A DNA stretch of 64,000 nucleotides from a bacterium (GCA_021813145.1 JAKALS010000005.1:8022-72021); one strand, 5' to 3'; positions 8,330 to 54,080 are shown, numbered from the stretch's first letter. Translations and numbers: made by a program. Notes: generated from the sequence alone by a model not told the origin.

Positions 8330-9526
8330 ATGCCCTCGAAATCAGGAGCAAAAACCAAAGCAAAAAAAACCCCTAAAAGAGTAAAATCTGCCCAGGCCAC
8401 GGGGATTTTGACACATAGAATTTCCGTTTTTGCGACAGGGTTTTTAGCCGCCGCGATATTTATTATTGCCCTGTCTTTTGTTTTAGTCCGGATAAACCAG
8501 ACTTTTGCCGCAAATTTTGCAGACAATGTTTTAAGACCCGTTATCGGAAATACGGCAACAATAAAAATAGAATCTTTATTTTTTGGCGTAGAAGATAATG
8601 TAAATAAGGTAAAATATGCTCTTGTAAAGCCGACGCCCGTTTTATTTACACAGGTTTCGCGGGAAAAAAGTATATATGCCGATTATAGTAATTCTTTTAG
8701 CTTAAACAGGATAACCTCTCTTTCTTATTTTTCTCTTTTTCCGGGCGAAGGCCAATGGAGCCCCATCTATAACGGTTCTTCGGAAGCGTATATGGAAAAA
8801 ACATTCGTAAGACCTGATCCTCAAAGGCCGTATGCGGTGGTATCTCTGGTTAAAATGGACATGAGCCATTTAAGTATTAATGCCGTTGCGGGGACCCGGG
8901 AACCGGGTGGTACTCAGAATCCCGGGCCCGGAAAAGTCCCCGAGGTAGTGCAAAAGAGCAACGATCTTGTGGCCGCTTTTAATGGAGGTTTTCAGCAAAA
9001 AGACGGACATTACGGAATGATAGTAAACGGGAAAACTTACCTCCCTCTTAAAAAAGGATTGGCAACCCTCGTAATTTACAACGGATATAAACCCCAAATA
9101 GTCGATTATGAGGGACAAAGCCTCGGGCAGAATGTAGTTACAATAAGGCAGAATGGACCGATGCTCTTGGAGAATGGACAGGATGTGACTTCATCAAGCG
9201 CCTGGAATATGCAGACCTGGGGGTTAACAATCACAAACTCGATGTACACATGGCGTTCGGGAATAGGGGTAACAAAAAACGGAAATCTTATTTATGCCGT
9301 AGGACCCTCTCTTGTTCCCGAAACTCTGGCTGCCGCACTAAAAGCAGCAGGAGCGGTAGATGCAATGCAGCTTGATATAAACCCGGTCTGGGTAAGGTTT
9401 GTAGTTTTTACTCCCCTGGGTAACGGACAATACAACTATTATCCTCTGACAAAAGACATGACTAACGGAGGCTATCAGGATCTTACGGGTTATCAAAAAG
9501 ATTTCTTCTATCTTATCAAAAAATAA
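8330..9526 (+). CDS. phosphodiester glycosidase family protein (DUF2233-like), membrane-anchored
   Basis: Lys-rich N-terminal tail plus TM helix. Central AAFNGGF...GMIVNGK...IGVTKNGNLIYAV resembles the DUF2233 family. Confidence 0.5.
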   Translation: MPSKSGAKTKAKKTPKRVKSAQATGILTHRISVFATGFLAAAIFIIALSFVLVRINQTFAANFADNVLRPVIGNTATIKIESLFFGVEDNVNKVKYALVKPTPVLFTQVSREKSIYADYSNSFSLNRITSLSYFSLFPGEGQWSPIYNGSSEAYMEKTFVRPDPQRPYAVVSLVKMDMSHLSINAVAGTREPGGTQNPGPGKVPEVVQKSNDLVAAFNGGFQQKDGHYGMIVNGKTYLPLKKGLATLVIYNGYKPQIVDYEGQSLGQNVVTIRQNGPMLLENGQDVTSSSAWNMQTWGLTITNSMYTWRSGIGVTKNGNLIYAVGPSLVPETLAAALKAAGAVDAMQLDINPVWVRFVVFTPLGNGQYNYYPLTKDMTNGGYQDLTGYQKDFFYLIKK

Positions 9527-10603: not shown

Positions 10604-11246
10604 GGGTTAGTTTCCCCGTTTTTGTGTTATCGTCGAATATATATTCGTACCCCTTTTTTATGCGGACTATATTGGTATTGAAATTAGTGTCGTTAAAAGC
10701 AAGAGCAGCCGAACCCGAACTAACCGTAATATCCACCCTGGAGCCCTCCTTGTCTACGGTTATATTTGTTTCTCCGCTTTCTACGTTTATCAAAAGGTCA
10801 AGAGCGACGACGCTTAAGGGGATGTTCCCGTTTTTTTGAAAGCTTGCTGTTCCTTGAATTTCGTTTGCTACAAAATCAGCCGGAAGAGTTTGTATGATGG
10901 ATATCTGCGTATTTGAAGATAGGCTAAAACTTCCGATTTTTGGAAATACCACAAAGGCGCTGCCGTTGTTATTTGTATTAATTTCCTCTCCTTGTTCGAT
11001 TTGCCTTGGAGAATTGATTAAAGTTGCAAAATCCGAAGTCCTTCCCTGCCAGGAAACGCTTCCGGACAGACTTGCCACTTCTCCCTTAAGGGATTCATCC
11101 GGAGGGTTTTTAATAGAAAATAGCGTTTTCGGGAAAAAAGGTTTTAATACCTGACTGTTTTGGGGGGCAATCCAAAAGTAGCCGAGTATTATCATAAGAA
11201 GCCCCAGGCAGAAAAAAATTAAAAATAAAAGGATATTTTTATTCAT
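10593..11246 (-). CDS. hypothetical secreted protein
   Basis: 217-aa ORF with an N-terminal signal anchor. Overlaps the GH18-like gene by 8 nt. Confidence 0.45.
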   Translation of the reverse strand: MNKNILLFLIFFCLGLLMIILGYFWIAPQNSQVLKPFFPKTLFSIKNPPDESLKGEVASLSGSVSWQGRTSDFATLINSPRQIEQGEEINTNNNGSAFVVFPKIGSFSLSSNTQISIIQTLPADFVANEIQGTASFQKNGNIPLSVVALDLLINVESGETNITVDKEGSRVDITVSSGSAALAFNDTNFNTNIVRIKKGYEYIFDDNTKTGKLTPIY

Positions 11247-12390
11247 TTTTATAATTAGTCAAAGGATTTAAAATTAAATCCCCTTCGTACCCCAATGCCC
11301 AAAGAGCCAATCCTTCCAGCTGAAAATTATTCGCCATTGTTATTTTTGCCTGCGTAGAAGCTTTATCGGGGTAAAAAATCGTATGAAAATCACCGCTCGT
11401 AGGGTCAAAATAGACAATGTATTTTTCATCTGCCTCTTTGTCAAGAGTAGCGCTGCAGGAAGAGCACGAAGAAATAAGATTTTCCACCCTTTCGTTACTA
11501 GCAACAACTCCGGTTCCGGGGATAATAGCCGATCGGGGTACTTGTCCTAAAGTTTCCCATTCGTATCCGTAAAGAGGAATTCCCAGAACTAATTTTTCCG
11601 GAGGGATTAAATCGAGAGCTTTTTCAACGGCAGATGTTACATCGTATTCCGAACTTATTCCCGCTCCAGAGACAGGAGCCACAGGGCCCGTCACAAAAGA
11701 ACTTGTGGAATGATAATCGTAGGCCATAAGAACAACGTTATTTGCAATTTTTGAAATTGCATTGGGGTCTATTAAATTATTTTTTATTACGTCGGTAGGA
11801 CTTATCTCCACTGTCAGGGTTACTCCGTTTCCCAATTCTCTTTTGACTTCACCGACAAACTTTGTAAAATTTTGCCTTGAAGACGGGGAAGCCTGAGAAG
11901 TATATTCAATGTCAAGATTAATGTCGGAAAACTTATATTTTGCAATAATAGGTTTAAGATCCATAACAAGGTTTTTTGCGTGCGCACCGGGACTTGCGAT
12001 AAGCTCGTTTATGGAATCCACATCCCCGCTTACTATCATAAGAGATAAATTCTCATTATTTTTGAGCGCTTGCGCAAAAAAATTATCAAGTTTCCCGGAA
12101 TTAAGAGCATTCCATCCGGGTTCTTCCTCCTGAGGGTTTAAAAGTTTTTGAATGTTTCCGTTGCCGTCTACTCTCAGCCCGAAATATGCAAGGGTAGTTA
12201 TATATTTTAAATGATTATTATTCTCCTTGTCTAAAAGCCAGTAGGGTAAAAAACCTATTACCATTTTTTTTGGCGCCAGGGGATTTATTATTGCGTTGTC
12301 TGTTTTGGGAACCAGGAAATTAAGAACTATTAGGATTCCTAAACCAACTCCAAGCAATAAGCCGATTACGGCAACTAAAATTTTCTTCAC
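11239..12390 (-). CDS. secreted GH18-like TIM-barrel glycosidase (chitinase/ENGase superfamily)
   Basis: Signal anchor. DINLDIEY resembles the GH18 DxDxDxE region but is one residue short. C-terminal LEGLALWALGYEGD resembles the GH18 C-terminus. Confidence 0.5.
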   Translation of the reverse strand: MKKILVAVIGLLLGVGLGILIVLNFLVPKTDNAIINPLAPKKMVIGFLPYWLLDKENNNHLKYITTLAYFGLRVDGNGNIQKLLNPQEEEPGWNALNSGKLDNFFAQALKNNENLSLMIVSGDVDSINELIASPGAHAKNLVMDLKPIIAKYKFSDINLDIEYTSQASPSSRQNFTKFVGEVKRELGNGVTLTVEISPTDVIKNNLIDPNAISKIANNVVLMAYDYHSTSSFVTGPVAPVSGAGISSEYDVTSAVEKALDLIPPEKLVLGIPLYGYEWETLGQVPRSAIIPGTGVVASNERVENLISSCSSCSATLDKEADEKYIVYFDPTSGDFHTIFYPDKASTQAKITMANNFQLEGLALWALGYEGDLILNPLTNYKNE

Positions 12391-13491: not shown

Positions 13492-15450
13492 CTAAAGCGA
13501 TTTATATTTTATAAGTTCCTGCAATAGTTTTTCCATATTAATTTTAGCTGCTCCCGTAACGGAATCGCCGGCACCGTAATATACAAAAAGATCGTTATTC
13601 AGGATTACTGCTCCGCATACAAAAACAACATTTGCAACCTGGCCGCTTTTTTCGTATTCCATTTCCGGAGAAAGAAGTGGATAATCAAGTCTTGAAATTA
13701 CTTTGGATGGATCATTCCTGTCCAAAAGGGCGGCCCCTATTTTGTAATAGCGCCCGTTTGAAATACCGTGGTAAATAAGCAGCCAACCCTCTTCTGTTTC
13801 AATCGGCGTAGCGCCTATTCCTATTTTACCGTTATCCCATTTATCAATTCTGGGACCCATAAGGATTTGCCCCAAAAGATATCCGTTTTCAAAATTTAAG
13901 TTATCAACATAATCTATCTCTATTTTTTCGTTAAGTCTGTGGAATACGACATATTTATTGTTTATTTTTTTGGGTAAAATACATGAGTCTTTGTCATCGA
14001 TCCCGGGCGGGGAAATGAGTTTTGGCGTTTCAAAATTCCAATTTTTATTCAAAAAATCCGATACTTTTATGGAAGTTAAAGCAACCCTCGGGGGATTTTC
14101 TCCGTCGTAAGCGGTATAACAGATATAGTATTTATCGTCTATTTTTGTAATCCTCGGATCTTCGCAGCCCGAATTGCCCGGTTTCTTCTTTTTTTCAAAT
14201 TCTTCTCTCGGTGTATAGATAGGCTCTGCAAGCCTTTGGTCTATCCTGAATCCGTCAATGCTTTCGGCGTATCCAAAAACGGATGTATTGTCGTCGGACA
14301 TAGCCCTGTAGATTATATGAACTTTTCCGTTTTCAAAAATTGCCGCCGGGTTATACGTAGCCCTTGATTCCCACGGATGATTTTTTAAGGGGGAAATTAT
14401 GGGATTTTCGGAATATCTTTCAAGCTTTATATTTTTTTCCTCATCCGGTTTTGTTATGGAGAATTCCTTTGAAAATTCAAGAAAATCATACTTTGCAAGG
14501 CAACAGGTTGTATCGGCCGCTCCGTAATAGACAAAAAGCTCGTTATCTGCAATGAGCGTACCCGAAGGAAAGACTATATTTGGGACATTCCCGTAGAGCT
14601 CATAACTTTTTTCCGGGGTTAAAAGTGGATCAGTTGTCCTCCAGATTATTTCGGAAGGATTTTCGGTGTCCATTAAAAGGGCCTCTATTCCGAAAATCTT
14701 TGAGCTAGAAAAATAATTTCTTATGTAAGAATATATTAAAAGCCATCCTTCTTTTGTTTTCACCGGAGGAGCGCCGACTTCTATTTGATCCCTTGAGTCT
14801 CTTTGCAGGGAAAGGGTGTGGTCGTTTAGGTAAGAATACCATTTATTCCAATATTCCTCTGACCAAATTTCTTCCAGGCTATCAAAGTACGCGATACAAA
14901 TTTTTGCCGGGGGCCTGTCGGTATTAACGGTAAGTATAGCCGCGTATTTTCCGTTAATCTTTTCCGGAAAAAGAGACATCGCTTTTGCGTTAAAAGGAGT
15001 CACCAGATGTTTTTCTTCTATTTTTTTAAAATCGCTTGTGATAGCCAGACCCACTTTAATTCCCGATGCCTGAAAAGGATAAGAAGACAGGGCTGTGTAG
15101 AAAATAAAATATTTCCCTTCAATTTTTGTAACCCTGGGGTCCTCGCATCCGAAGATTTCCCATTTTTCCTCGGGTTTTATAAGTTGCATATGATCTGAAA
15201 AATGAATACCGTCATAACTTTTGGCATATCCGATTGAAGATAACTGCATCTTGTTGCCTTTATAATTTATCGTGTTCGTTTGAGCTCTGTAAACCATATG
15301 AAAATCATTATCTTTTATGCAGCAACCGTTGAATGCGGATTTTTCTTCCCATGGATTATTGATATTAGGAGTTAATATGGGATTTTCGGGTATTCTTTGA
15401 AGGTTAATCATTGTGTTTATATACAGGGACCGTTTTAAAGTTTTTTTCAA
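13492..15450 (-). CDS. tandem double GH130 (DUF377) glycosidase/phosphorylase
   Basis: Two complete GH130-like halves, each with NPIL(T/S)P...YRA...GCEDPR(V/I)TKI...KEGWLLIYH...VYYGAAD. Alternative start at MINLQ (15414). Confidence 0.8.
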   Translation of the reverse strand: MKKTLKRSLYINTMINLQRIPENPILTPNINNPWEEKSAFNGCCIKDNDFHMVYRAQTNTINYKGNKMQLSSIGYAKSYDGIHFSDHMQLIKPEEKWEIFGCEDPRVTKIEGKYFIFYTALSSYPFQASGIKVGLAITSDFKKIEEKHLVTPFNAKAMSLFPEKINGKYAAILTVNTDRPPAKICIAYFDSLEEIWSEEYWNKWYSYLNDHTLSLQRDSRDQIEVGAPPVKTKEGWLLIYSYIRNYFSSSKIFGIEALLMDTENPSEIIWRTTDPLLTPEKSYELYGNVPNIVFPSGTLIADNELFVYYGAADTTCCLAKYDFLEFSKEFSITKPDEEKNIKLERYSENPIISPLKNHPWESRATYNPAAIFENGKVHIIYRAMSDDNTSVFGYAESIDGFRIDQRLAEPIYTPREEFEKKKKPGNSGCEDPRITKIDDKYYICYTAYDGENPPRVALTSIKVSDFLNKNWNFETPKLISPPGIDDKDSCILPKKINNKYVVFHRLNEKIEIDYVDNLNFENGYLLGQILMGPRIDKWDNGKIGIGATPIETEEGWLLIYHGISNGRYYKIGAALLDRNDPSKVISRLDYPLLSPEMEYEKSGQVANVVFVCGAVILNNDLFVYYGAGDSVTGAAKINMEKLLQELIKYKSL

Positions 15451-17251
15451 GTTCCAAATAGCCGGATTTTTTCAATCCTGTCAAAAGTTCGTCTAAATCC
15501 TTTGAAGCGACGCATAGAAATTTATCCGCCCCTCCGTAATAAACATATAAAATATCCTTAATGAGAGCCGCACCGCAGGGATAAGCCACCCCTGCCTTAT
15601 AACCTTCGTTTTCGTATTTATCGGTAGGCTCGAGTATGGGCCTTTTCGTCCTGTAAAGGACTTTTGTCGGATCATTAAGGTCCAAAAGCATCGCGCCTAT
15701 TTTGTATTTTGAATCGTCTTTGTCATCAACAGCATGGTATATTAAAAGCCATCCTTCTTTAGTCTTAATGGGAGGCGGTCCTGCCCCGACTTTTCTGCTG
15801 TCCCAACCGTCTGTAGTAGGTTCAATTTTATATTCGCCTTTTAAGTATGAACCTTTTTTAAAGTCCAAATCCTCCACGAAATCAATCAGGATATTGGGGA
15901 AAATTCTGTGGAGGAAAGTATATTTTCCGTTAATTTTCTCCGGAAATAAAACGGCATTTTTATCTACCACGCCGGGTTTTGAAATAATTTTGGGTTTTTT
16001 CCATTTCCAATTTTTATTGAGAAAATCTTTTCTTTTTATGGAGGTTAATGCAACTCGCGGCGGGTCAAATCCGTTAAAAGCGACATAAGTCATATAAATA
16101 GTATCATCTATTCTTGTAAGTCTCGGGTCTTCGCAGCCCCCGTATCCTCCGCCGGACATATAATTTGCAACAGCTTCCATGCCGTTTGAGTATTCGAACG
16201 GTTCGCTTGGGAGATATGCAGGCTGATCGAGCCTTTCATCTATATTTAAACCGTCCTTACTTGATGCATAACCAAGTACGGAAATATTATTGTCTCCCAT
16301 AGCTCTATAAAGAAAATGCACCTTTCCGTTGTCGTTTAAGGCGGCAGAATTGAATGTCGCCTGTGATTCCCAAAAATGTTCCATAACGGGTTTTATGATA
16401 GGATTTTTAAAATGTTTTTTTAATAGCGGGTGCTTAACAGACGCCTTATTGAGAAGCTCTTTGATAAAATTTTTAAAATGAACGGTGTATACGAATTTTT
16501 GCTCCGAAGAAAAATATAAGAAAAGATCATTTTTTAATATCGCCGCCCCCAGGGGATATATTTTTTTATCCTTAAGTTCTTTTTTGGGCTCCCATACCGG
16601 CTCTTCATTTCTCCAAATAAGTTTTTCCGGATATTTTTTGTCAAACAGCGCCGCTCCTATCAGGTATCTCCCCCCGCTTCTATCGGGAACATTAACGGAA
16701 TAAAAAACTAAAATACCCTGCTTTTCGTTAAATACGCTCAAAATCTTAAGCGGAAAGCTGTCAAAAGAACGGACTTTCGGCTTTAAAACCTCCCGTGTAT
16801 TTTGAAAATTCTTTAAATCCTTCGAGAAAGATACTTTTATTGTTTCCTCTCCCAGGTAAAATACATACATATTTTTATGTTTAAATTGAGGAGCCATCAT
16901 TGCCGTTTCCGTCAGGGGTAATTTTGAAGCTTTATTCCACAAAACAAGATCTTTGGATACCGCTATAAAAACATCTTTTTTCCCGTTGTGGTTCTTGATA
17001 TATGTAAGAAAATATTCTTCTTTGTTTTTTGATATTCTAAAATCGTTTAATCTTGAACTTTCTTCTTTTTTCCCTTTCGCGGTTATTATTGAAGGATTAT
17101 TTGGGTATAGCTTGAACTTAATACCGTTTCGGCTTTGGGCCAGCCTTAAAGTTTCTTTGGAGTAACCGTATAAATTGAGATAGATAAAGATATTTTTTTT
17201 ATCCTGAAGTATCCCTAAATCACGGTTGTCTAAAGGAATACTGTTATTCAT
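15404..17251 (-). CDS. GH130 (DUF377) protein with a divergent N-terminal GH130-like domain
   Basis: C-terminal half is canonical (KNPIIKP...YRAMGD...GCEDPRLTRI...KEGWLLIYHAV...YVYYGGAD). N-terminal half is degenerate (RYLIGAALFDKKYPEKLIW). Confidence 0.8.
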   Translation of the reverse strand: MNNSIPLDNRDLGILQDKKNIFIYLNLYGYSKETLRLAQSRNGIKFKLYPNNPSIITAKGKKEESSRLNDFRISKNKEEYFLTYIKNHNGKKDVFIAVSKDLVLWNKASKLPLTETAMMAPQFKHKNMYVFYLGEETIKVSFSKDLKNFQNTREVLKPKVRSFDSFPLKILSVFNEKQGILVFYSVNVPDRSGGRYLIGAALFDKKYPEKLIWRNEEPVWEPKKELKDKKIYPLGAAILKNDLFLYFSSEQKFVYTVHFKNFIKELLNKASVKHPLLKKHFKNPIIKPVMEHFWESQATFNSAALNDNGKVHFLYRAMGDNNISVLGYASSKDGLNIDERLDQPAYLPSEPFEYSNGMEAVANYMSGGGYGGCEDPRLTRIDDTIYMTYVAFNGFDPPRVALTSIKRKDFLNKNWKWKKPKIISKPGVVDKNAVLFPEKINGKYTFLHRIFPNILIDFVEDLDFKKGSYLKGEYKIEPTTDGWDSRKVGAGPPPIKTKEGWLLIYHAVDDKDDSKYKIGAMLLDLNDPTKVLYRTKRPILEPTDKYENEGYKAGVAYPCGAALIKDILYVYYGGADKFLCVASKDLDELLTGLKKSGYLELEKNFKTVPVYKHND

Positions 17252-17400
17252 AAAGGCAGTTTTAGGTATCCTGAATTTGCGGGTACTATAATTATACTAA
17301 TGCAACTACATATTTGAGTCAAGAATTTTACCTCTTTCTTACAAGATTTTTCCCCTCTTTAAATATTCTGTTTTTATACTCGCTGTTAAGAAGGTGTAGT

Positions 17401-17694
17401 ATGGAAAGCGGTAAAAAGAAAATAGGCACAAAAAATGTCGTCGCTGCGGTAGCGGGAGCTTTGGTGGGAGCGGGTATCGGAGCAGCCACCACAAAAACAC
17501 TTTCCGATAAAAAGACAAGGAAAAGAGTATCGGTGATACTGGACGGATTAAAAAATCAGATAATTGATTCTTTGGATTTGGCTAAGGAGAAGGCCGAAGA
17601 CAAAACGGATGGTACAAAAGAAAAATTTGATGAAAAAAAAGAATCCGTTAAAAAAACATTGAACTCCAAGGCGGAAGACAAAACTAGGTCTTAA
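17401..17694 (+). CDS. YtxH-like small protein (Gly-zipper TM helix plus Lys/Glu-rich coiled coil)
   Basis: VVAAVAGALVGAGIGAATT followed by a charged helical tail. SD GAAGGTG lies upstream of ATG 17401. Confidence 0.4.
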   Translation: MESGKKKIGTKNVVAAVAGALVGAGIGAATTKTLSDKKTRKRVSVILDGLKNQIIDSLDLAKEKAEDKTDGTKEKFDEKKESVKKTLNSKAEDKTRS

Positions 17695-18844
17695 ATTTTG
17701 TAAAAAAGACAAGTAAAATAATAGCCGTAAAAGAAATTAATGAGCCAAAGAAAAAGGGAGCGGAGGGATTTATCCTGTCCCATAAAAAGCCTGCTGCAAA
17801 GCTTGCGGGTAGGGTCATGAGCCCTACGGAAGCATTATATATTCCATAACCTCTTCCTCTGTTGTTCTGGGGTACCAAATCTGCAATAAACGCTTTTGCG
17901 ACTCCTTCTGTTGTGGCGTAGTAAATTCCGTAAAAAGCGAAAAGAAACCAAATTTCTAAAGAGTTATTTGCGAGTCCGAAACCCAAATAAGAAAGCCCAT
18001 AACAGAGCCAACCCAGTATTATTACTTTCTCTCTCCCTATTTTATCCGAAAGGCTTCCCAAGGGAATTGAAAAAGATGCATAAACAAAATTAAAAAGAGC
18101 AAAAACAAGAGGGATTGCAAGAAGAGTAACCCCTACGTTCTGAGCTCTTAAAATGAGAAATGTATCGGAAGAGTTCCCCAAAGAAAAGAGAAGAACAATA
18201 AAAAGGAACATATAATATTTTAGGGAAAGGCCTTTCGTTGTATTTTGCCCTACGTCTTTTGTTATCGGCACTTCTTTTACAAAAAAACTTAAAATGGTCA
18301 AAGTAAAAATAAGGGGGATTGCCGTTATAAAGAAAATATAATGATATTTAAGAGAATTGTTGGATAAAAAATAAAGGAGTACAAAAAGCAAAATAGGTCC
18401 CGCAACGGAGCCGAAGGTGTCCAAAGCCCTTACTATGCCAAATCCTCTGCCCCTTTTTTCGCTTTCGGTCGAGCCCGCTATTAATGCATCTTTTGGCGTA
18501 TCCTTAATTCCTTTTCCTACTCCGTCTAAAAATCTCAAAAATATTACCCCAAAGTAGGAAGTGAATACCGCAAGCAGCGGTCTTGAAACCATTGACAGAA
18601 AGTATCCCAAAAAAACGACGGACTTATTTTTTCCGAATTTGTCTATTATGAATCCCGCTGCAAGTTTAAAAATACTGGCGCTACTTGTCACGAGGCCTTC
18701 GGCAAGGCCAATAAATTCTTTGTCGAATTTTAAAACATTTGCCAGATAAAGGGGAAGTATGGGAATAAAAATATCCTGGCTTATGCCGCCGAAAAAACTT
18801 AAGAGGCCTACGAAAAACACATTTTCCGGGAGTTTTTTCTTCAT
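17684..18844 (-). CDS. MFS transporter
   Basis: 12-TM profile with the MFS loop motif (GKxxDKxGR-like: SDKIGREK). Start chosen at MKKKLPEN (18844), preceded by TATAAT and 6 nt (leaderless). Confidence 0.75.
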   Translation of the reverse strand: MKKKLPENVFFVGLLSFFGGISQDIFIPILPLYLANVLKFDKEFIGLAEGLVTSSASIFKLAAGFIIDKFGKNKSVVFLGYFLSMVSRPLLAVFTSYFGVIFLRFLDGVGKGIKDTPKDALIAGSTESEKRGRGFGIVRALDTFGSVAGPILLFVLLYFLSNNSLKYHYIFFITAIPLIFTLTILSFFVKEVPITKDVGQNTTKGLSLKYYMFLFIVLLFSLGNSSDTFLILRAQNVGVTLLAIPLVFALFNFVYASFSIPLGSLSDKIGREKVIILGWLCYGLSYLGFGLANNSLEIWFLFAFYGIYYATTEGVAKAFIADLVPQNNRGRGYGIYNASVGLMTLPASFAAGFLWDRINPSAPFFFGSLISFTAIILLVFFTKFKT

Positions 18845-18860
18845 GAGCCAATTATACTCT

Positions 18861-19565
18861 TTAGAGGATTTCTTTTTCCGCCATGAGTTGGAAAGATTCG
18901 TATTTGAACTGGTTTTTGTCAATTCTTTTTAAAAATCTTTCCCAGTCTTTATTCTGGGTTTTATGTTCCTTTAAAGCCTTTATTTTCTTATCCATTGTTT
19001 TTTCTATATCTACAAAAGTCGTTATGTTTTTATCCGCGGTTCCCCTCACTTTACCGAAAGCGTTGTAATCCAACCCCTGTTTCTCGAATCTTTTTACAGA
19101 GGTTCTTGGCATTGCGGTGTGATATAGCCGGGTATGTTTTTTAACAGTGTCTTTATATTTTAAATAAACGTTTGTAGCAGCCCTTCCGATTGCTTTGTGG
19201 TCGGGATGATTGGAGCCTCCGGTTTTATCGAAGGTTATTACCACATCCGGTTTTTCCTTTTTGAATATCCCGAATATTTTATTTTCCAACTCTTTATTTC
19301 TTGCATACCTTAATTTTCCGTCAATGTACCCCAAAAAAAAGATTTCCGATATTCCTAAAATTTTTGCAGCGCGTCTCAACTCCTGTTCCCTTACGCCTGG
19401 TAATTTATCCACAGTCGTAATCGGCGGTGTTCCGGGAAGTCCTGCTTCACCTCTGGTTGCTGTTATGAGTTTTACGGTATGTTTTTCCGAGGTTAATTTT
19501 GCTATTGTCCCGCCGCTGGAAAAAGTTTCGTCGTCCGGATGTGCAAAAACCAATAAAAGTTTCAT
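18861..19565 (-). CDS. PIG-L/LmbE family N-acetylglucosaminyl deacetylase
   Basis: KLLLVFAHPDDETFSSGG gives the AHPDDE motif of the PIG-L family. Confidence 0.8.
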   Translation of the reverse strand: MKLLLVFAHPDDETFSSGGTIAKLTSEKHTVKLITATRGEAGLPGTPPITTVDKLPGVREQELRRAAKILGISEIFFLGYIDGKLRYARNKELENKIFGIFKKEKPDVVITFDKTGGSNHPDHKAIGRAATNVYLKYKDTVKKHTRLYHTAMPRTSVKRFEKQGLDYNAFGKVRGTADKNITTFVDIEKTMDKKIKALKEHKTQNKDWERFLKRIDKNQFKYESFQLMAEKEIL

Positions 19566-19607
19566 AGACAAAGATTATACAACTTGTTGTAAAATAAAAA
19601 AACGGTT

Positions 19608-36634: not shown

Positions 36635-37948
36635 ATGATAAAAAAATATTTAAACAGAAAATATCTGCCCGAGTTTCTCATTTTTTTCTTCGCCTTATTT
36701 ACGAGATTTTTCAGGCTCGATGTCCCCAAAAATTATATTTTCGACGAGGTTTATCATGCTTGGACGGCGGGGCAAATGTTTATGGGTAATCCGGCTGCAT
36801 GGGAGTGGTGGAATACTCCTCCGGCCGGCGTTGCCTATGAATGGACGCATCCTCCTTTGGCAAAAGAGTTCATGGTTTTGGCAATTGCCGCTTTTGGTAA
36901 TAACAGTTTTGCGTGGAGATTTTTTTCTGCCCTTTTCGGGTTCGGAGTAATAGTTCTTATTTATCTAATTGCCTACAAGCTTTTTAAAAGCAGGACAATA
37001 GCGCTTTTTGCATCTTTTGCGGCCTCTTGCGACGGGCTTTTGCTTGTAATGTCAAGAATAGGGATGAACGATATGTATTTCCTGTTCTTTGCGATGCTTG
37101 CTTTTCTTTTCTTTCTTAACAAGAAGAATTTTCTTATGGCAGTTTCCTTGGGTTTGTCGGTTGCCTCCAAGTGGACGGGGTTATTTGCCGTAGGCATATT
37201 GGGAATTATTTTTCTTGCAGAGCTTTCGCTTTTGCTAAAGAGGAAAAAAATAAAACAAAAAGAGGCTCTTAAAAAAATAATTATTTCGCCTATTTATTTT
37301 ATCCTTATTCCCTTTATTATCTATCTTCTTGTTTATCTCCCGTTTTTTACAGGACACCATACTCCTCCCGGGGAACAGCCGTCGCCTTTTAACGTAAATA
37401 CTTTTATAGGACTTCAGGAGCAGATGTATTGGTATCACACCGATTTAAAGGCAACACATCCGTACCAGTCCGTACCGGTGCAATGGGTTTTTGATTTAAG
37501 ACCTGTATGGATTTATGTAAATTATTCAGGAAGTACGATTGCCAATATATACAACCTCGGAAACCCTCTTTTTATGTGGTTCGGGTTAGCTGCCATGATT
37601 TTTCTTTTATTTGATTACATTAAGGAAAGAAATTTAAATCAGGGAATAGTTATTTTTTCTTATCTTGCTTTTTTTGTCCCGTGGGCGGCCTCTCCAAGAA
37701 TCATGTTTTATTATCATTACCTTCCTGCAGTTCCTTTTTTGGCGATTGCTACGGGGTATGTTCTAAATAAATTATTTGCTTCCTCTTCGGGCAGAATTGT
37801 AGTGGCGGTTTATCTTTTTACTCTTGTTGCTTTGTTTATTTACTTTCTTCCTTTATGGACGGCAATACCTGTTCCCAAATGTCAGATTCCGGGACCTAAT
37901 TGTACCAGCTGGTATGATTCCTTCTTCTGGCTCCCGAGTTGGAAATAA
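36635..37948 (+). CDS. GT39/PMT-family (ArnT-like) membrane glycosyltransferase
   Basis: N-terminal loop FDEVYHA (the DE motif of GT-C PMT/ArnT) and a PPLAKEF loop. Multi-TM. Confidence 0.7.
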   Translation: MIKKYLNRKYLPEFLIFFFALFTRFFRLDVPKNYIFDEVYHAWTAGQMFMGNPAAWEWWNTPPAGVAYEWTHPPLAKEFMVLAIAAFGNNSFAWRFFSALFGFGVIVLIYLIAYKLFKSRTIALFASFAASCDGLLLVMSRIGMNDMYFLFFAMLAFLFFLNKKNFLMAVSLGLSVASKWTGLFAVGILGIIFLAELSLLLKRKKIKQKEALKKIIISPIYFILIPFIIYLLVYLPFFTGHHTPPGEQPSPFNVNTFIGLQEQMYWYHTDLKATHPYQSVPVQWVFDLRPVWIYVNYSGSTIANIYNLGNPLFMWFGLAAMIFLLFDYIKERNLNQGIVIFSYLAFFVPWAASPRIMFYYHYLPAVPFLAIATGYVLNKLFASSSGRIVVAVYLFTLVALFIYFLPLWTAIPVPKCQIPGPNCTSWYDSFFWLPSWK

Positions 37949-37955
37949 ACTAAAA

Positions 37956-39161
37956 ATGAAAAAATTGGAGAGTTTTTTAAAAAGCAATAAAAACTCTTTG
38001 CCCCTTTTTTTGGGAACTCTTTTGGTATACGCACTGTCAGGAAATGGAAAAGGAGCCTATTACAATTATTATGTACTTCTTTCTCAAGCGTTCCTCAGGG
38101 GAGATTTATATGTCAGCCAACACCCAGCTTGGCTTAATGAATTGGTGCTGTTTGGCGGACACTATTTTGTCGTATACCCACCAATGCCGGCAATACTTCT
38201 GATGCCGTTCGTCTTTATTTTCGGGTCTTCCTTTTCCCAGCCTTTACTATCCGCCATTTTGGGTGCTTTAAGTGTGACCGCTTCATATTTTGTTATTAAG
38301 AAATTATTTAAGAGAAAGACAGCTTTTTTTATGACCGCTCTTTATGCTTTCGGTACTATGGAATGGTTCCACGCCTCGGTGGGTTCCGCTTGGTATATAG
38401 GCCAGATAGCGGGAATGCTTTTTATTTGGCTTTCGCTTTTAGAACTATTGACTAAAAAGAGACTGTTTTTTGTGGGATTTTTTATTGGACTGGCCTACAC
38501 TTCAAGATTGCCTACAATCCTGGCCTTGGTTTTTGTCCTCTTATATTCTTTTGAGGATTTTATAATCTTAAATAAAAATAGAATAAGGTTAAATCTTAAA
38601 AATTGTTTTTTATTCGGATTGGGATTTTTGCCTGCTTTATTATTCGAGGCAATTTATAACTTTTTAAGATTCGGGGTCTTTTACGACGCAGGTTATTTTT
38701 TGCTTTATAGAGCAGCTGAATTTAATGAGCCTTGGTATAAATTCGGTTATTTCAGTATAAGATATATTCCGGTACATCTAAATGAAATTTTTACCGCCTT
38801 GCCCAAATTTATTCCAACTCCTCCATATGTTATTCCGTCTATTTTTGTTATGGCCCTTTGGTTTGTCACGCCTGCATTTTTAATTATTCCCTTCGCAGAT
38901 TACAAAAAAAGACTTGCGGTAACCTCTTTGGTTACTGTTTTAATTATGTCTTTGCCTGGACTTTTGCATGGAGGCAATGACTTTACTCAATTTGGGTACA
39001 GAAATTCTTTGGATTACCTTCCCTTTATGCTCTTTCTTGTGGCAAGCGCCTTCGAGAAAGAAAAGCTGCAAAAAATAGGGATTGTTCTTATTTTGTTAAG
39101 TATTATTGTTAATCTTTGGGGCGTTGTAATGATTAACTTCTTGAATATTTGGGTTATTTAA
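37956..39161 (+). CDS. GT-C fold membrane glycosyltransferase, third in a row
   Basis: Multi-TM protein with a PMT_2-like layout. Start taken at ATG 37956, after the upstream stop. Confidence 0.55.
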   Translation: MKKLESFLKSNKNSLPLFLGTLLVYALSGNGKGAYYNYYVLLSQAFLRGDLYVSQHPAWLNELVLFGGHYFVVYPPMPAILLMPFVFIFGSSFSQPLLSAILGALSVTASYFVIKKLFKRKTAFFMTALYAFGTMEWFHASVGSAWYIGQIAGMLFIWLSLLELLTKKRLFFVGFFIGLAYTSRLPTILALVFVLLYSFEDFIILNKNRIRLNLKNCFLFGLGFLPALLFEAIYNFLRFGVFYDAGYFLLYRAAEFNEPWYKFGYFSIRYIPVHLNEIFTALPKFIPTPPYVIPSIFVMALWFVTPAFLIIPFADYKKRLAVTSLVTVLIMSLPGLLHGGNDFTQFGYRNSLDYLPFMLFLVASAFEKEKLQKIGIVLILLSIIVNLWGVVMINFLNIWVI

Positions 39162-52258: not shown

Positions 52259-52612
52259 TTATAAAACTATCTGTATAGTTCTTACAACAAAAAGCATGGT
52301 AAGAATGGCGACGATAAGACTTATAACGGCAAGAAGTCTCGAGACGAGGGGCGTCTTTTTATAAAGAACGGAAGATACGATTATGTTAACGATAAGGATA
52401 AAAAATGAGATGACAGTAGGAATAAAAACTCCCCAGGTCGGGGCAAGCCTCGGCGTTCCCCACGGCAGTTGGTTATAAACCGGCATAAAAGGCGGAAGCC
52501 CCTTATAATTTATCAGTATGTAGGGAAGCGGGAGGATTATAAGGATAATTGTTGTCAGGAAACCTCTAAAAGTGAGCTTGTCCTGCCTTATATCACTAAA
52601 GAACTCTTTCAT
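52259..52612 (-). CDS. small 3-4 TM membrane protein, operon member
   Basis: 117 aa. Its start overlaps the upstream GT-C gene. Confidence 0.4.
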   Translation of the reverse strand: MKEFFSDIRQDKLTFRGFLTTIILIILPLPYILINYKGLPPFMPVYNQLPWGTPRLAPTWGVFIPTVISFFILIVNIIVSSVLYKKTPLVSRLLAVISLIVAILTMLFVVRTIQIVL

Positions 52613-54080
52613 ATATTAAAACGTTATCGATTTCAATTTTTTCTTTGTAGTTAACAAGAGAAAAGGGAATGGGTCCGACGTTTGGCATGATAACAATAAA
52701 TTTCGGTTTTTTCAATGCTATTGCATTTTGTGTATTTGAGACTCCGTCCGGGTAATCTTCTACGTGATAAGCAACCGCATATTTTCCCGGAGGAAGTTTG
52801 TCCGTAAGTTTATAAAGCATAGCGTTGTTTCCCCAGAGAAATATCGAGTCTTTTTTTGTGGTATTTGCATTTATAAAGGCGGCAACTTCGTATGTAACGG
52901 GAGTTCCTCTGTCAAAAAAATTCTGATATGCCGTAACGCTTTCCCGTCCCAAGACAAACGAAGTAAAATTGACATAATAAGCCGCAAATTTATCGTAGAA
53001 CCAAAAATTCTTCAATACCAAAAATAAAGTTATAATTGCAACAACGGACGTGATAACCTTAAGTTTCCTGTCATAAAAAATAAAACCCAACAAAAGAACA
53101 AATGCGGGTAGCATATTCAGAAGGTAATGGGTGTAAGGTCTTTGGGAAAAGAAAGAATTAAAAAGGGAAAAAGCAAACCAACTCCATATAAATATCGCCG
53201 TCTTATCCAGCGAATGTCTTCTTGCATAAAGATAAAGACAGAAAAGGCCCAGTAAAATTATTTTGAGTATCAAGAAACCTTGGGGAATTATAAGTTTATT
53301 TCCGTAGCCGACATATCCGATATTGGAGAAAAATGTCGCTTTTAAAAAGGGTGAAATAGCGCCTTCAAAAAAGAAGAAAAGTACGGTAGCAAGAATCGGA
53401 ATTGCAAAGCCGAGAGTAAAAGGTACCATTTTTATAATTTCCGCTTTTAGCTCTTTTACTTTTAACAATTTTTTAAGATAAAATTCTTTGTCGGTTAAAG
53501 CGATAAATACAAAGAACGCCGCAAAATCAAAAACTGCAACTATTTTAAAAAGAAATGAAACGCCGAGTAAAAAACCTGCGATAAATTGTATTTTGTATTT
53601 GTTATTCAGTATTTTTTCATCGATAGATTTTAAGATAAAGAGGGCTGCGATAACGGTGGGGAGAAGCATAAAATTTTCTGCATTTGCTATGTTCCCTTCG
53701 ATAATCGGGAGACCGAAAAGAACGGCATAAAGCCCGGTAGCAAAAAATATTATTTTGTCTCTGTTAAAAAGTTTCTTTGCCAGGAAATAGAAAATAATTA
53801 CACTTAAAAGTCCTACAATCAGCGAGAAAAGTCTGACGTAAAACTGGTCGGAATTAAACAGGCTATATACAAAATATAAAAGCGGCGGTTTGTTATCCCA
53901 GATATCCCTGTATAAAAGCCTTCCCTGATCCATCGCCATCCCTAAAACCTGATATATCCCTTCGTCGCCGTACCAATAGGGTTCAAAAAGCGACGGGAGC
54001 CTTAACAGAAAAAAGAAAAAAGAGGTAAAAAGAAGAAACCAAAATTCTTTGCTTCTTTCAAGCCTTTGTAATAAATTCAT
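52596..54080 (-). CDS. GT-C fold membrane glycosyltransferase (PMT_2/ArnT-like)
   Basis: YWYGDEGIYQ first-loop DE motif, about 12 TM helices, and a C-terminal soluble domain. Confidence 0.6.
   Translation of the reverse strand: MNLLQRLERSKEFWFLLFTSFFFFLLRLPSLFEPYWYGDEGIYQVLGMAMDQGRLLYRDIWDNKPPLLYFVYSLFNSDQFYVRLFSLIVGLLSVIIFYFLAKKLFNRDKIIFFATGLYAVLFGLPIIEGNIANAENFMLLPTVIAALFILKSIDEKILNNKYKIQFIAGFLLGVSFLFKIVAVFDFAAFFVFIALTDKEFYLKKLLKVKELKAEIIKMVPFTLGFAIPILATVLFFFFEGAISPFLKATFFSNIGYVGYGNKLIIPQGFLILKIILLGLFCLYLYARRHSLDKTAIFIWSWFAFSLFNSFFSQRPYTHYLLNMLPAFVLLLGFIFYDRKLKVITSVVAIITLFLVLKNFWFYDKFAAYYVNFTSFVLGRESVTAYQNFFDRGTPVTYEVAAFINANTTKKDSIFLWGNNAMLYKLTDKLPPGKYAVAYHVEDYPDGVSNTQNAIALKKPKFIVIMPNVGPIPFSLVNYKEKIEIDNVLIYERVL

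Follow-up and report, generated by a model that had tools for sequence, protein, structure and literature searches.

Two adjacent genes, each with two GH130 domains

The window analysed here, a stretch of 64,000 nucleotides (nt) of bacterial DNA (GCA_021813145.1, JAKALS010000005.1:8022-72021), carries on its minus strand two adjacent genes, B and A, each encoding two domains of glycoside hydrolase family 130 (GH130). An open reading frame (ORF) scan delimits them at 15404..17251 (615 amino acids, aa; ATG start) and 13492..15450 (652 aa; TTG start). In gene B, a degenerate GH130-like propeller that is probably non-catalytic (B_N, residues 1-272; 16436..17251, minus strand) precedes a canonical phosphorylase-type GH130 domain with the full predicted phosphorylase signature and an inserted Gly-rich loop directly before its ED pair (B_C, residues 273-615; 15407..16435, minus strand). 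Gene A joins a full-length, hydrolase-like GH130 propeller with a rebuilt phosphate site (A_N, residues 1-322; 14446..15411, minus strand) to a second domain with the full phosphorylase-type signature (A_C, residues 323-639; 13495..14445, minus strand).

Gene A most likely spans 13492..15411 (minus strand) and encodes 639 aa, because the identical database protein (P0001) has this length and starts at the Met of MINLQR, and the same Met (M1) is the start in nearly all of 116 A orthologues. The length of 652 aa given by an earlier interpretation of the same DNA (hereafter, the sequence-only reading) is correct for the maximal ORF, which opens with a TTG codon at 15450, but not for the gene as defined by the conserved ATG. 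Residue numbering below follows the 639-aa A and the 615-aa B. The ATG of gene A overlaps the stop codon of gene B within 8 nt (ATGATTAA; 15404..15411, minus strand), a typical operon junction at which translational coupling is possible.

Scanned separately against PF04041 (Glyco_hydro_130; Pfam cut-off 26 bits), all four halves are members of GH130 as defined by CAZy and of PF04041, with matches far beyond chance. A_N scores 166.1 bits (E 1.2e-48), A_C 184.1 bits (E 4.2e-54), B_C 164.2 bits (E 4.8e-48) and B_N 50.5 bits (E 1.9e-13), the last over profile positions 68-271 only. The earlier claim that each of the two adjacent genes has two GH130 domains is thereby upheld, including for the N-terminal halves, both of which match the GH130/DUF377 model. 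Its premise that GH130 proteins are normally single-domain is also sound: more than 99% of GH130 enzymes are single-module, and in 2018 CAZy held 4 GH130-GH130 sequences, none of them characterised, with both modules in the same similarity-network node (PMC7660257). These entries resemble A and B in having two GH130 modules per polypeptide and differ in that the modules of A are of different types and the family described here is very large.

The full-length structure predictions agree with this division. AlphaFold2 (AF2) models built with orthologue alignments show two confident all-β domains in protein A (predicted local distance difference test, pLDDT, 95.4; predicted template modelling score, pTM, 0.60), joined by a low-confidence linker at residues 320-324, and two in protein B (pLDDT 92.3, pTM 0.74), where B_N is still β-rich. 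In Foldseek searches against the PDB, a domain of A matches 9fj8, 9gph and 7fip with a TM-score (target) of 0.88-0.91 and a root-mean-square deviation of 1.8-2.8 Å; the PDB matches comprise only single-domain GH130 chains and no solved chain with two GH130 propellers. By inspection, with no predictor run, no signal-like hydrophobic stretch was seen at the N-termini of A and B. The C-terminal tail of B beyond the propeller (residues ~596-615; window about 15407-15466) shows little conservation across the orthologues and contains an extra β-strand at 605-612 in the AF2 model (pLDDT about 71-78).

Phosphorylase signature of the C-terminal domains

The key residues of GH130 include a proton-donor Asp and an adjacent Glu, which is Tyr in β-1,4 enzymes (PMC7660257 Table 2, PMC4599007, PMC12814180). 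The -1/+1 subsites are shaped by a C-terminal Asp together with an Arg and with a Lys that is Arg in other specificities; phosphorylases in addition bind phosphate through the HR-motif Arg, another Arg/Lys and a His (PMC7660257, PMC4599007, PMC12814180). The R/E/K/D pattern combined with R/H denotes β-1,2-mannoside phosphorylases (PMC7660257 Table 2). The reference positions were D104 (proton donor), R168 and H231 of UhgbMP, R242 of Uhgb_MS, and K199, R89 and D363 of BT3780.

In A_C, the whole signature (R369, E417-D418, K474, H491-R492, K529, H548, D616) is invariant in 116/116 orthologues. In B_C, R316, E374-D375, K431, H448-R449, K487 and D576 are invariant among 115 orthologues, with position H506 occupied by H in 74, Q in 37 and Y in 4. 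Both domains therefore carry a complete signature of the kind predicted for β-1,2-mannoside phosphorylases, and the description of the C-terminal domain of B as canonical agrees with this as well as with its PF04041 score. The catalytic Asp proposed for verification is indeed in place: the proton donor is invariant as D91 of A_N, D418 of A_C and D375 of B_C. The R/E/K/D signature, which is predictive of β-1,2 specificity, is likewise invariant in these three domains. In the wider family, B_C exists in two flavours, HRK[H/Q/Y], as in the window, and HS[V/I/L]H, which has neither the Arg nor the Lys; the latter is commoner where B is short (24/34 short vs 10/34 long forms) and also predominates in the triple-domain fusions.

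A specialised N-terminal domain in protein A

A_N retains R42, E90-D91, K143 and D300, all invariant in the 116 orthologues, and its phosphate site is extensively rebuilt. In place of the HR pair (-> L-T/V) stands an extended loop, T-[AV]-N-T-D165-x-P-P-[AS]-K170; Q/H209 occupies the Arg/Lys position and S228 the His position; the Gly two residues past Q/H209, on the same strand, has become an invariant E211, and the Asp/Asn following the Lys an invariant Ala. The phosphate-binding Arg, Arg/Lys and His are all absent from the 116 orthologues and from 82/82 genomes, and the new carboxylates are close to universal, with D165 present in 115/116 and E211 in 116/116 orthologues. This signature is common to 82/82 A_N domains from independent genomes. 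A_N also contains a Trp-rich helical insertion of ~20 residues (about 177-198), with invariant W188 and W191 and helices at 179-198 in the AF2 model.

The earlier description of A as two complete GH130 repeats thus stands with respect to fold and length and fails at the phosphate site of A_N, where every basic residue has been replaced; a check of phosphate-binding residues, suggested at the same time, finds them in A_C and B_C and not in A_N and B_N. Purifying selection on the two halves of A is equal in strength, with a mean pairwise orthologue identity of 57% for A_N vs 56% for A_C. Because it is constrained as much as A_C, A_N is judged to be functional and specialised rather than decaying.

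Replacement of basic by acidic residues is a hallmark of GH130 hydrolases (PMC4599007), and an acidic residue at the phosphate site is reported to clash with phosphate and with GDP-mannose (GDP-Man) (PMC12814180). A parallel is found in the GH130_3 enzymes BT3780 and BACOVA_03624 (5a7v, 3qc2), which, like A_N, keep the sugar-subsite Asp, Glu, Lys, Arg and Asp, have lost the phosphate-binding basic residues and have gained carboxylates. For this comparison, the BT3780 sequence was reconstructed from a printed alignment and its numbering verified against published residues. E211 of A_N shares an alignment column with BT3780 E268, one of the two candidate catalytic bases of that hydrolase (E227 and E268, both about 2.7 Å from O1), and the phosphate-binding His has become a small polar residue in both proteins (Asn in BT3780, Ser in A_N). 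The differences are equally clear: A_N is closer to phosphorylases, it lacks the YWGE227 motif and it has the longer T-x-N-T-D-x-P-P loop and the Trp-rich helical insert. Its score against the GH130_3 β-1,2-mannosidase model (NCBIfam NF058598) is 87 bits, below the cut-off of 550.

The decayed N-terminal domain of protein B

Missing from B_N are the first ~30 residues of the fold and, of the signature, the Arg, Lys and His, the Glu of the ED pair, the HR motif and the C-terminal Asp, so that all three phosphate-binding residues are absent. An Asp at the catalytic position (Asp70) is present in this window and is kept in only 80/115 orthologues. The mean pairwise orthologue identity is 35% for B_N vs 61% for B_C, and by these measures B_N is degenerate and weakly constrained. 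It is also dispensable, because B consists of a single domain in about half of the loci and because B_C-A_N-A_C fusions without B_N exist. The sequence-only reading had recognised the eroded motifs of this propeller correctly; its view that one N-terminal domain is unusual holds for the degenerate B_N but overlooks A_N, which is unusual as well, having lost the phosphate-binding basic residues.

Relationships among the domains and to known systems

Pairwise identity is highest between A_C and B_C (49%), followed by A_N-A_C (36%), A_N-B_C (31%) and B_N-A_C (24%). The best PDB match of A_C is 7fip, the β-1,2-mannobiose phosphorylase Teth514_1789 (221 bits, ~40% identity), followed by 9fj8 (200 bits), and that of B_C is 9fj8, the β-1,2-oligomannan phosphorylase Teth514_1788 (214 bits), followed by 7fip (189 bits). 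A_N is also most similar to 9fj8 (172.8 bits), with hydrolases at 56-68 bits, and B_N matches the same structure at 47.6 bits. In a rough, midpoint-rooted neighbour-joining (NJ) tree without support values, A_C and B_C form sister clades apart from the Thermoanaerobacter pair, and A_N falls into a clade of its own together with apparently stand-alone ~325-aa proteins of the same signature, with the GH130_3 hydrolases elsewhere. The loss of the phosphate site in A_N accordingly looks independent of GH130_3, that is, convergent. On this rough tree, protein A would be a fusion of two distinct GH130 lineages and not an internal repeat, which runs counter to the earlier notion of two equivalent repeats. 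One-to-one orthology of A_C with Teth514_1789 and of B_C with Teth514_1788, suggested by the reciprocal best PDB matches, was considered and set aside, being contradicted by the same tree.

The closest characterised system is the pair Teth514_1788/Teth514_1789 from X-514 (GH130_6; 9fj8, 7fip), which provides the best matches of A_C, B_C and A_N at 173-221 bits and 37-40% identity. The likeness includes the catalytic Asp, the R/E/K/D residues and the phosphate-binding residues, which A_C and B_C have in common with the Teth514 enzymes, and the arrangement as two adjacent paralogous genes without signal peptides (PMC4264767). The Teth514 enzymes are, however, single-domain homodimers of ~300 aa, whereas each gene here has acquired a second propeller; their genes lie in a conserved cluster with an ABC transporter, GH5, a mannose-1-phosphate (Man1P) guanylyltransferase and GT4 (PMC4264767), whereas the flanks here are unconserved; and A_C and B_C appear in the NJ tree to stem from a separate duplication. 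A more remote analogy is offered by the GT108 mannosyltransferase/phosphorylases (MTP) of Leishmania (6q4y, 6q50), which share the five-bladed propeller and whose paralogues mix phosphate-dependent and phosphate-independent chemistry on β-1,2-mannan. They are single-domain and eukaryotic, and their transferase members keep the nucleotide-diphosphate-binding residues; MTP-2 and MTP-4 are distant structural relatives only (Foldseek E ~1e-9, 13-18% identity).

Conservation, operon structure and domain architectures

Full-length orthologues number 116 for A and 115 for B, with identities of 55-72% and 46-68%, respectively. The few with named sources come from Levybacteria, Gottesmanbacteria, Woesebacteria, Moraniibacteriota and Parcubacteria, and the NCBI label is "hypothetical protein". 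With each GTDB species represented by one genome, a scan confirmed relatives of A in at least 576 species-level genomes, mostly of Patescibacteria. The best 80 of these span all Patescibacteria, including Levy-, Gottesman-, Morani-, Doudna-, Sung-, Wolfe-, Jorgensen-, Campbell- and Peregrinibacteria, Saccharibacteria and Paceibacterota, and two of the 80 lie on complete chromosomes of 0.83 and 0.88 Mb. Many loci (L009, L010, L017-L019, L021, L026 and others) bear other labels: they come from metagenome-assembled genomes titled "uncultured Gammaproteobacteria bacterium" (binchicken, SRP co-assemblies) or labelled Dehalococcoidia, Rhizobiaceae, Bacteroidetes or Babeliales. Such labels outside Patescibacteria probably reflect placeholder or wrong taxonomy or mis-binned contigs.

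When the ORFs of 83 loci were typed with domain-specific hidden Markov models, a B-type gene was found directly upstream of A on the same strand in 77, with a median ORF overlap of 15 nt. Among these 77 loci, B is long (B_N and B_C) in 34-37, consists of a single B_C domain in 32 (ORFs of 347-485 codons) and is cut by a contig edge in 8; B is absent in only three or four of the 83 typed loci having sufficient upstream sequence. Three long contigs (L001-L003) repeat this order, with A directly following B in the same orientation. Their flanks are unrelated: one carries glycosyltransferases, another the pentose-phosphate pathway and the remaining one miscellaneous genes. The B-A pair is thus an old operon conserved across Patescibacteria. 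The tandem duplication envisaged from the window alone was no recent or local event, as shown by more than 115 orthologues of each gene and by the B-then-A order in 77/83 loci across many classes of the Candidate Phyla Radiation (CPR), the ultrasmall bacteria also known as Patescibacteria.

Other architectures rearrange the same modules. Four proteins of about 1000 aa (P0003, P0004, P0007, P0009) are B_C-A_N-A_C fusions, which constitute Rosetta-stone evidence that the products of A and B work together. A search with A_N over 1.84 billion representative proteins, followed by domain typing, additionally revealed a protein with the swapped order A_C-A_N (P0242, 645 aa), an A_N-A_C protein with an unassigned C-terminal tail of ~400 aa (P0240, 1029 aa) and a B_C-A_C protein (P0294, 697 aa). 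Three further double-domain proteins of ~615-700 aa (P0280, P0319, P0363) represent a separate family built from two modules with hydrolase-like signatures, without HR/His and with Glu at the E211 column; the best matches of P0280 are the GH130_3 structures 3taw, 3qc2 and 5a7v.

The fold, the family and the types of chemistry involved are known. In the literature searched there is no description of the heterotypic fusion of a hydrolase-like with a phosphorylase-type module, of the conserved three-module operon or of its distribution across Patescibacteria. One CPR genome has been noted in passing to contain "two enzymes of family GH130" beside GH18 (PMC7143001); targeted literature searches on GH130/DUF377 in CPR returned nothing beyond this mention, and no biochemical data for double-GH130 proteins were found in the same literature.

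Surroundings of the gene pair in the window

Directly upstream of B, on the same strand, lie an MFS transporter and a PIG-L family de-N-acetylase (17684-19571, minus strand). GH18 (11239-12390, minus strand) and an NAGPA-like phosphodiester glycosidase (8330-9526, plus strand) are encoded nearby, and a DinB-family protein is also a neighbour. None of these neighbours is conserved on the three long contigs. A promoter-like sequence, TTGACT-17-TAGTAT (17294..17322, minus strand), is located ~40 nt upstream of gene B and serves as a lead only; the consensus scan that yielded it gave 14 sites against 14.0 expected, which is not significant, and promoter and terminator hits in general were at the background rate.

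Further away, three ORFs match PMT or PMT_2, polyprenol-phosphate-mannose-dependent mannosyltransferases (36635-37948 and 37824-39161, plus strand; 52596-54080, minus strand). These matches suggest that envelope glycoconjugates are mannosylated in this organism, which would require Man1P or GDP-Man to be supplied. The 64-kb window contains no tRNA genes and no Rfam families at the gathering threshold; its GC content is 35-46%, and the cumulative GC skew rises steadily.

Proposed function and alternative interpretations

We interpret the B-A pair as encoding a cytoplasmic three-module machine for processing β-1,2-mannosides, with an optional, decayed fourth module, and regard the chances for and against this composite picture as evenly divided. 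B_C and A_C would phosphorolyse β-1,2-linked manno-oligosaccharides to α-mannose-1-phosphate. Their chain-length preferences may differ, as those of Teth514_1788 and Teth514_1789 do (PMC4264767), although the preference of A_C cannot be inferred, because the chain-length determinant W120 of Teth514_1789 aligns to a Pro in that domain. A_N, keeping the proton-donor Asp and the -1/+1 sugar-subsite residues without phosphate binding, would perform phosphate-free cleavage or transfer at the same linkage type. It would most likely be an inverting hydrolase in which water is activated by E211 and/or D165; hydrolysis is favoured because the exchange of basic for acidic residues is what makes GH130 hydrolases and because the acid would exclude both Man1P and GDP-Man. 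Such an enzyme would be mechanistically similar to the GH130_3 mannosidases while having evolved independently, and could take a substrate or a terminal residue beyond the reach of the phosphorylases. B_N would be a structural or binding module at most, a structural remnant. The three active-type modules probably form one complex, since some lineages encode B_C-A_N-A_C as a single polypeptide, and the physiological role could be the supply or salvage of Man1P.

It should be noted that several observations weigh against this composite picture. No single domain reaches the cut-off of 450 bits of the β-1,2-mannobiose phosphorylase equivalog (NCBIfam NF052550), the scores being 208 for A_N, 270 for A_C, 75 for B_N and 249 for B_C. 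Protein A as a whole does score 473 bits, above 450 only through the summing of two domains, which makes this model an annotation trap: the summed score crosses an equivalog cut-off that neither domain reaches singly. Substrate specificity is accordingly a prediction from the residue signature. Known GH130 hydrolases, GH130_3 among them, are typically secreted and the GH130_3 enzymes mostly single-domain, whereas protein A is apparently cytoplasmic and its A_N is fused to a phosphorylase-type module. D165 lies in the loop that bears BT3780 E227 but in another column, the loop of A_N being 4-5 residues longer. In many lineages B_C is without the Arg and the Lys, so that "two phosphorylases" is not valid for every genome. 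Finally, the inter-domain orientation of A in the AF2 model is uncertain (pTM 0.60), and across the three long contigs there is neither a conserved flanking partner nor a consistently linked transporter or Man1P enzyme.

Two alternatives concern A_N. It could be a catalytically silent, lectin-like module that feeds a β-mannoside chain to A_C, leaving A_C and B_C as the only enzymes. With all phosphate-binding residues gone, this would supply a family without classical carbohydrate-binding modules (PMC7660257) with a duplicated propeller in that role; the invariant W188/W191 of the helical insert could form a sugar-stacking platform, and B_N sets a precedent, in the same system, for decay of a GH130 propeller to a non-catalytic module. 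We nevertheless consider it fairly unlikely: D91 and E90 are invariant in 116/116 orthologues and 82/82 genomes, the fixed new carboxylates D165 and E211 would be unexpected in a mere binding module, the conservation of A_N equals that of the catalytic A_C, unlike the decayed B_N, and the apparently stand-alone A_N-type proteins of ~325 aa, P0249 and P0253 among them, imply that the domain can work without a partner in cis. Instead of losing activity, A_N could have become a sugar-nucleotide-dependent β-1,2-mannosyltransferase similar to GT108 MTP1/MTP2, acting in a synthase/phosphorylase cycle around an intracellular β-1,2-mannan reserve ("mannogen"). Closely related GH130 β-1,2 phosphorylases show weak GDP-Man transferase activity, and the H/R switch position is without its Arg in strict GT108 transferases (PMC12814180), but A_N has lost all basic residues and not the switch Arg alone, and has gained acidic ones; an acidic residue at this site reportedly clashes with the phosphate of both Man1P and GDP-Man (PMC12814180). 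The self-contained, cytoplasmic operon without a conserved transporter, its retention in very small genomes (0.83-0.88 Mb chromosomes), the use of β-1,2-mannan as a carbohydrate reserve in Leishmania (PMC4264767) and the presence of MTP-2 and MTP-4 among the distant structural relatives found by Foldseek all fit such a cycle; no gene of the GDP-mannose pathway is consistently adjacent on the three long contigs, and we regard a transferase as quite unlikely.

The substrate itself might be another β-linked glycan scavenged from host cells, with the R/E/K/D signature being misleading in a deep-branching clade. All four domains score far below equivalog cut-offs, they are at most 40% identical to solved enzymes, A_C and B_C form a clade apart from Teth514_1788/Teth514_1789 in the rough NJ tree, and the neighbours in the window are related to the cell wall (GH18, the PIG-L deacetylase, the MFS transporter and the NAGPA-like protein). 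These flanking genes vary between genomes, however, all characterised GH130 enzymes act on β-mannosides, and the β-1,2-specifying Glu and Lys are invariant in A_N, A_C and B_C, which makes a different substrate unlikely. An artefact of assembly, frameshift or gene calling as the source of the two-domain proteins might be suspected from the apparently stand-alone A_N-type and B_C-type proteins, but it is exceedingly improbable: the ORFs here run uninterrupted through both domains, as do those of more than 230 orthologues from independent assemblies and of 82 species-level genomes, linker lengths are consistent, and the AF2 predictions are confident for both halves.

Implications for Patescibacteria and for family GH130

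The genomes of Patescibacteria are tiny (chromosomes of 0.8-0.9 Mb among the matches) and encode few carbohydrate-active enzymes, yet hundreds of species keep ~3.8 kb of GH130 coding sequence. Because so many species with small genomes retain the pair, an important and so far unnoticed role of β-mannosides in these bacteria is suggested; salvage from hosts, provision of Man1P for envelope glycans and a storage glycan are possible roles. It is intriguing, if improbable, that the B-A pair might be a Patescibacteria-wide, self-contained machine for building and mobilising an intracellular β-1,2-mannan, the counterpart of Leishmania mannogen, with A_N as its phosphate-independent (transferase or trimming) module. 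If so, the two phosphorylase modules would recover Man1P without ATP, an energy saving within a minimal metabolism. For the family as a whole, protein A offers a natural system in which to examine how a GH130 module changes from phosphorolysis to hydrolysis or transfer.

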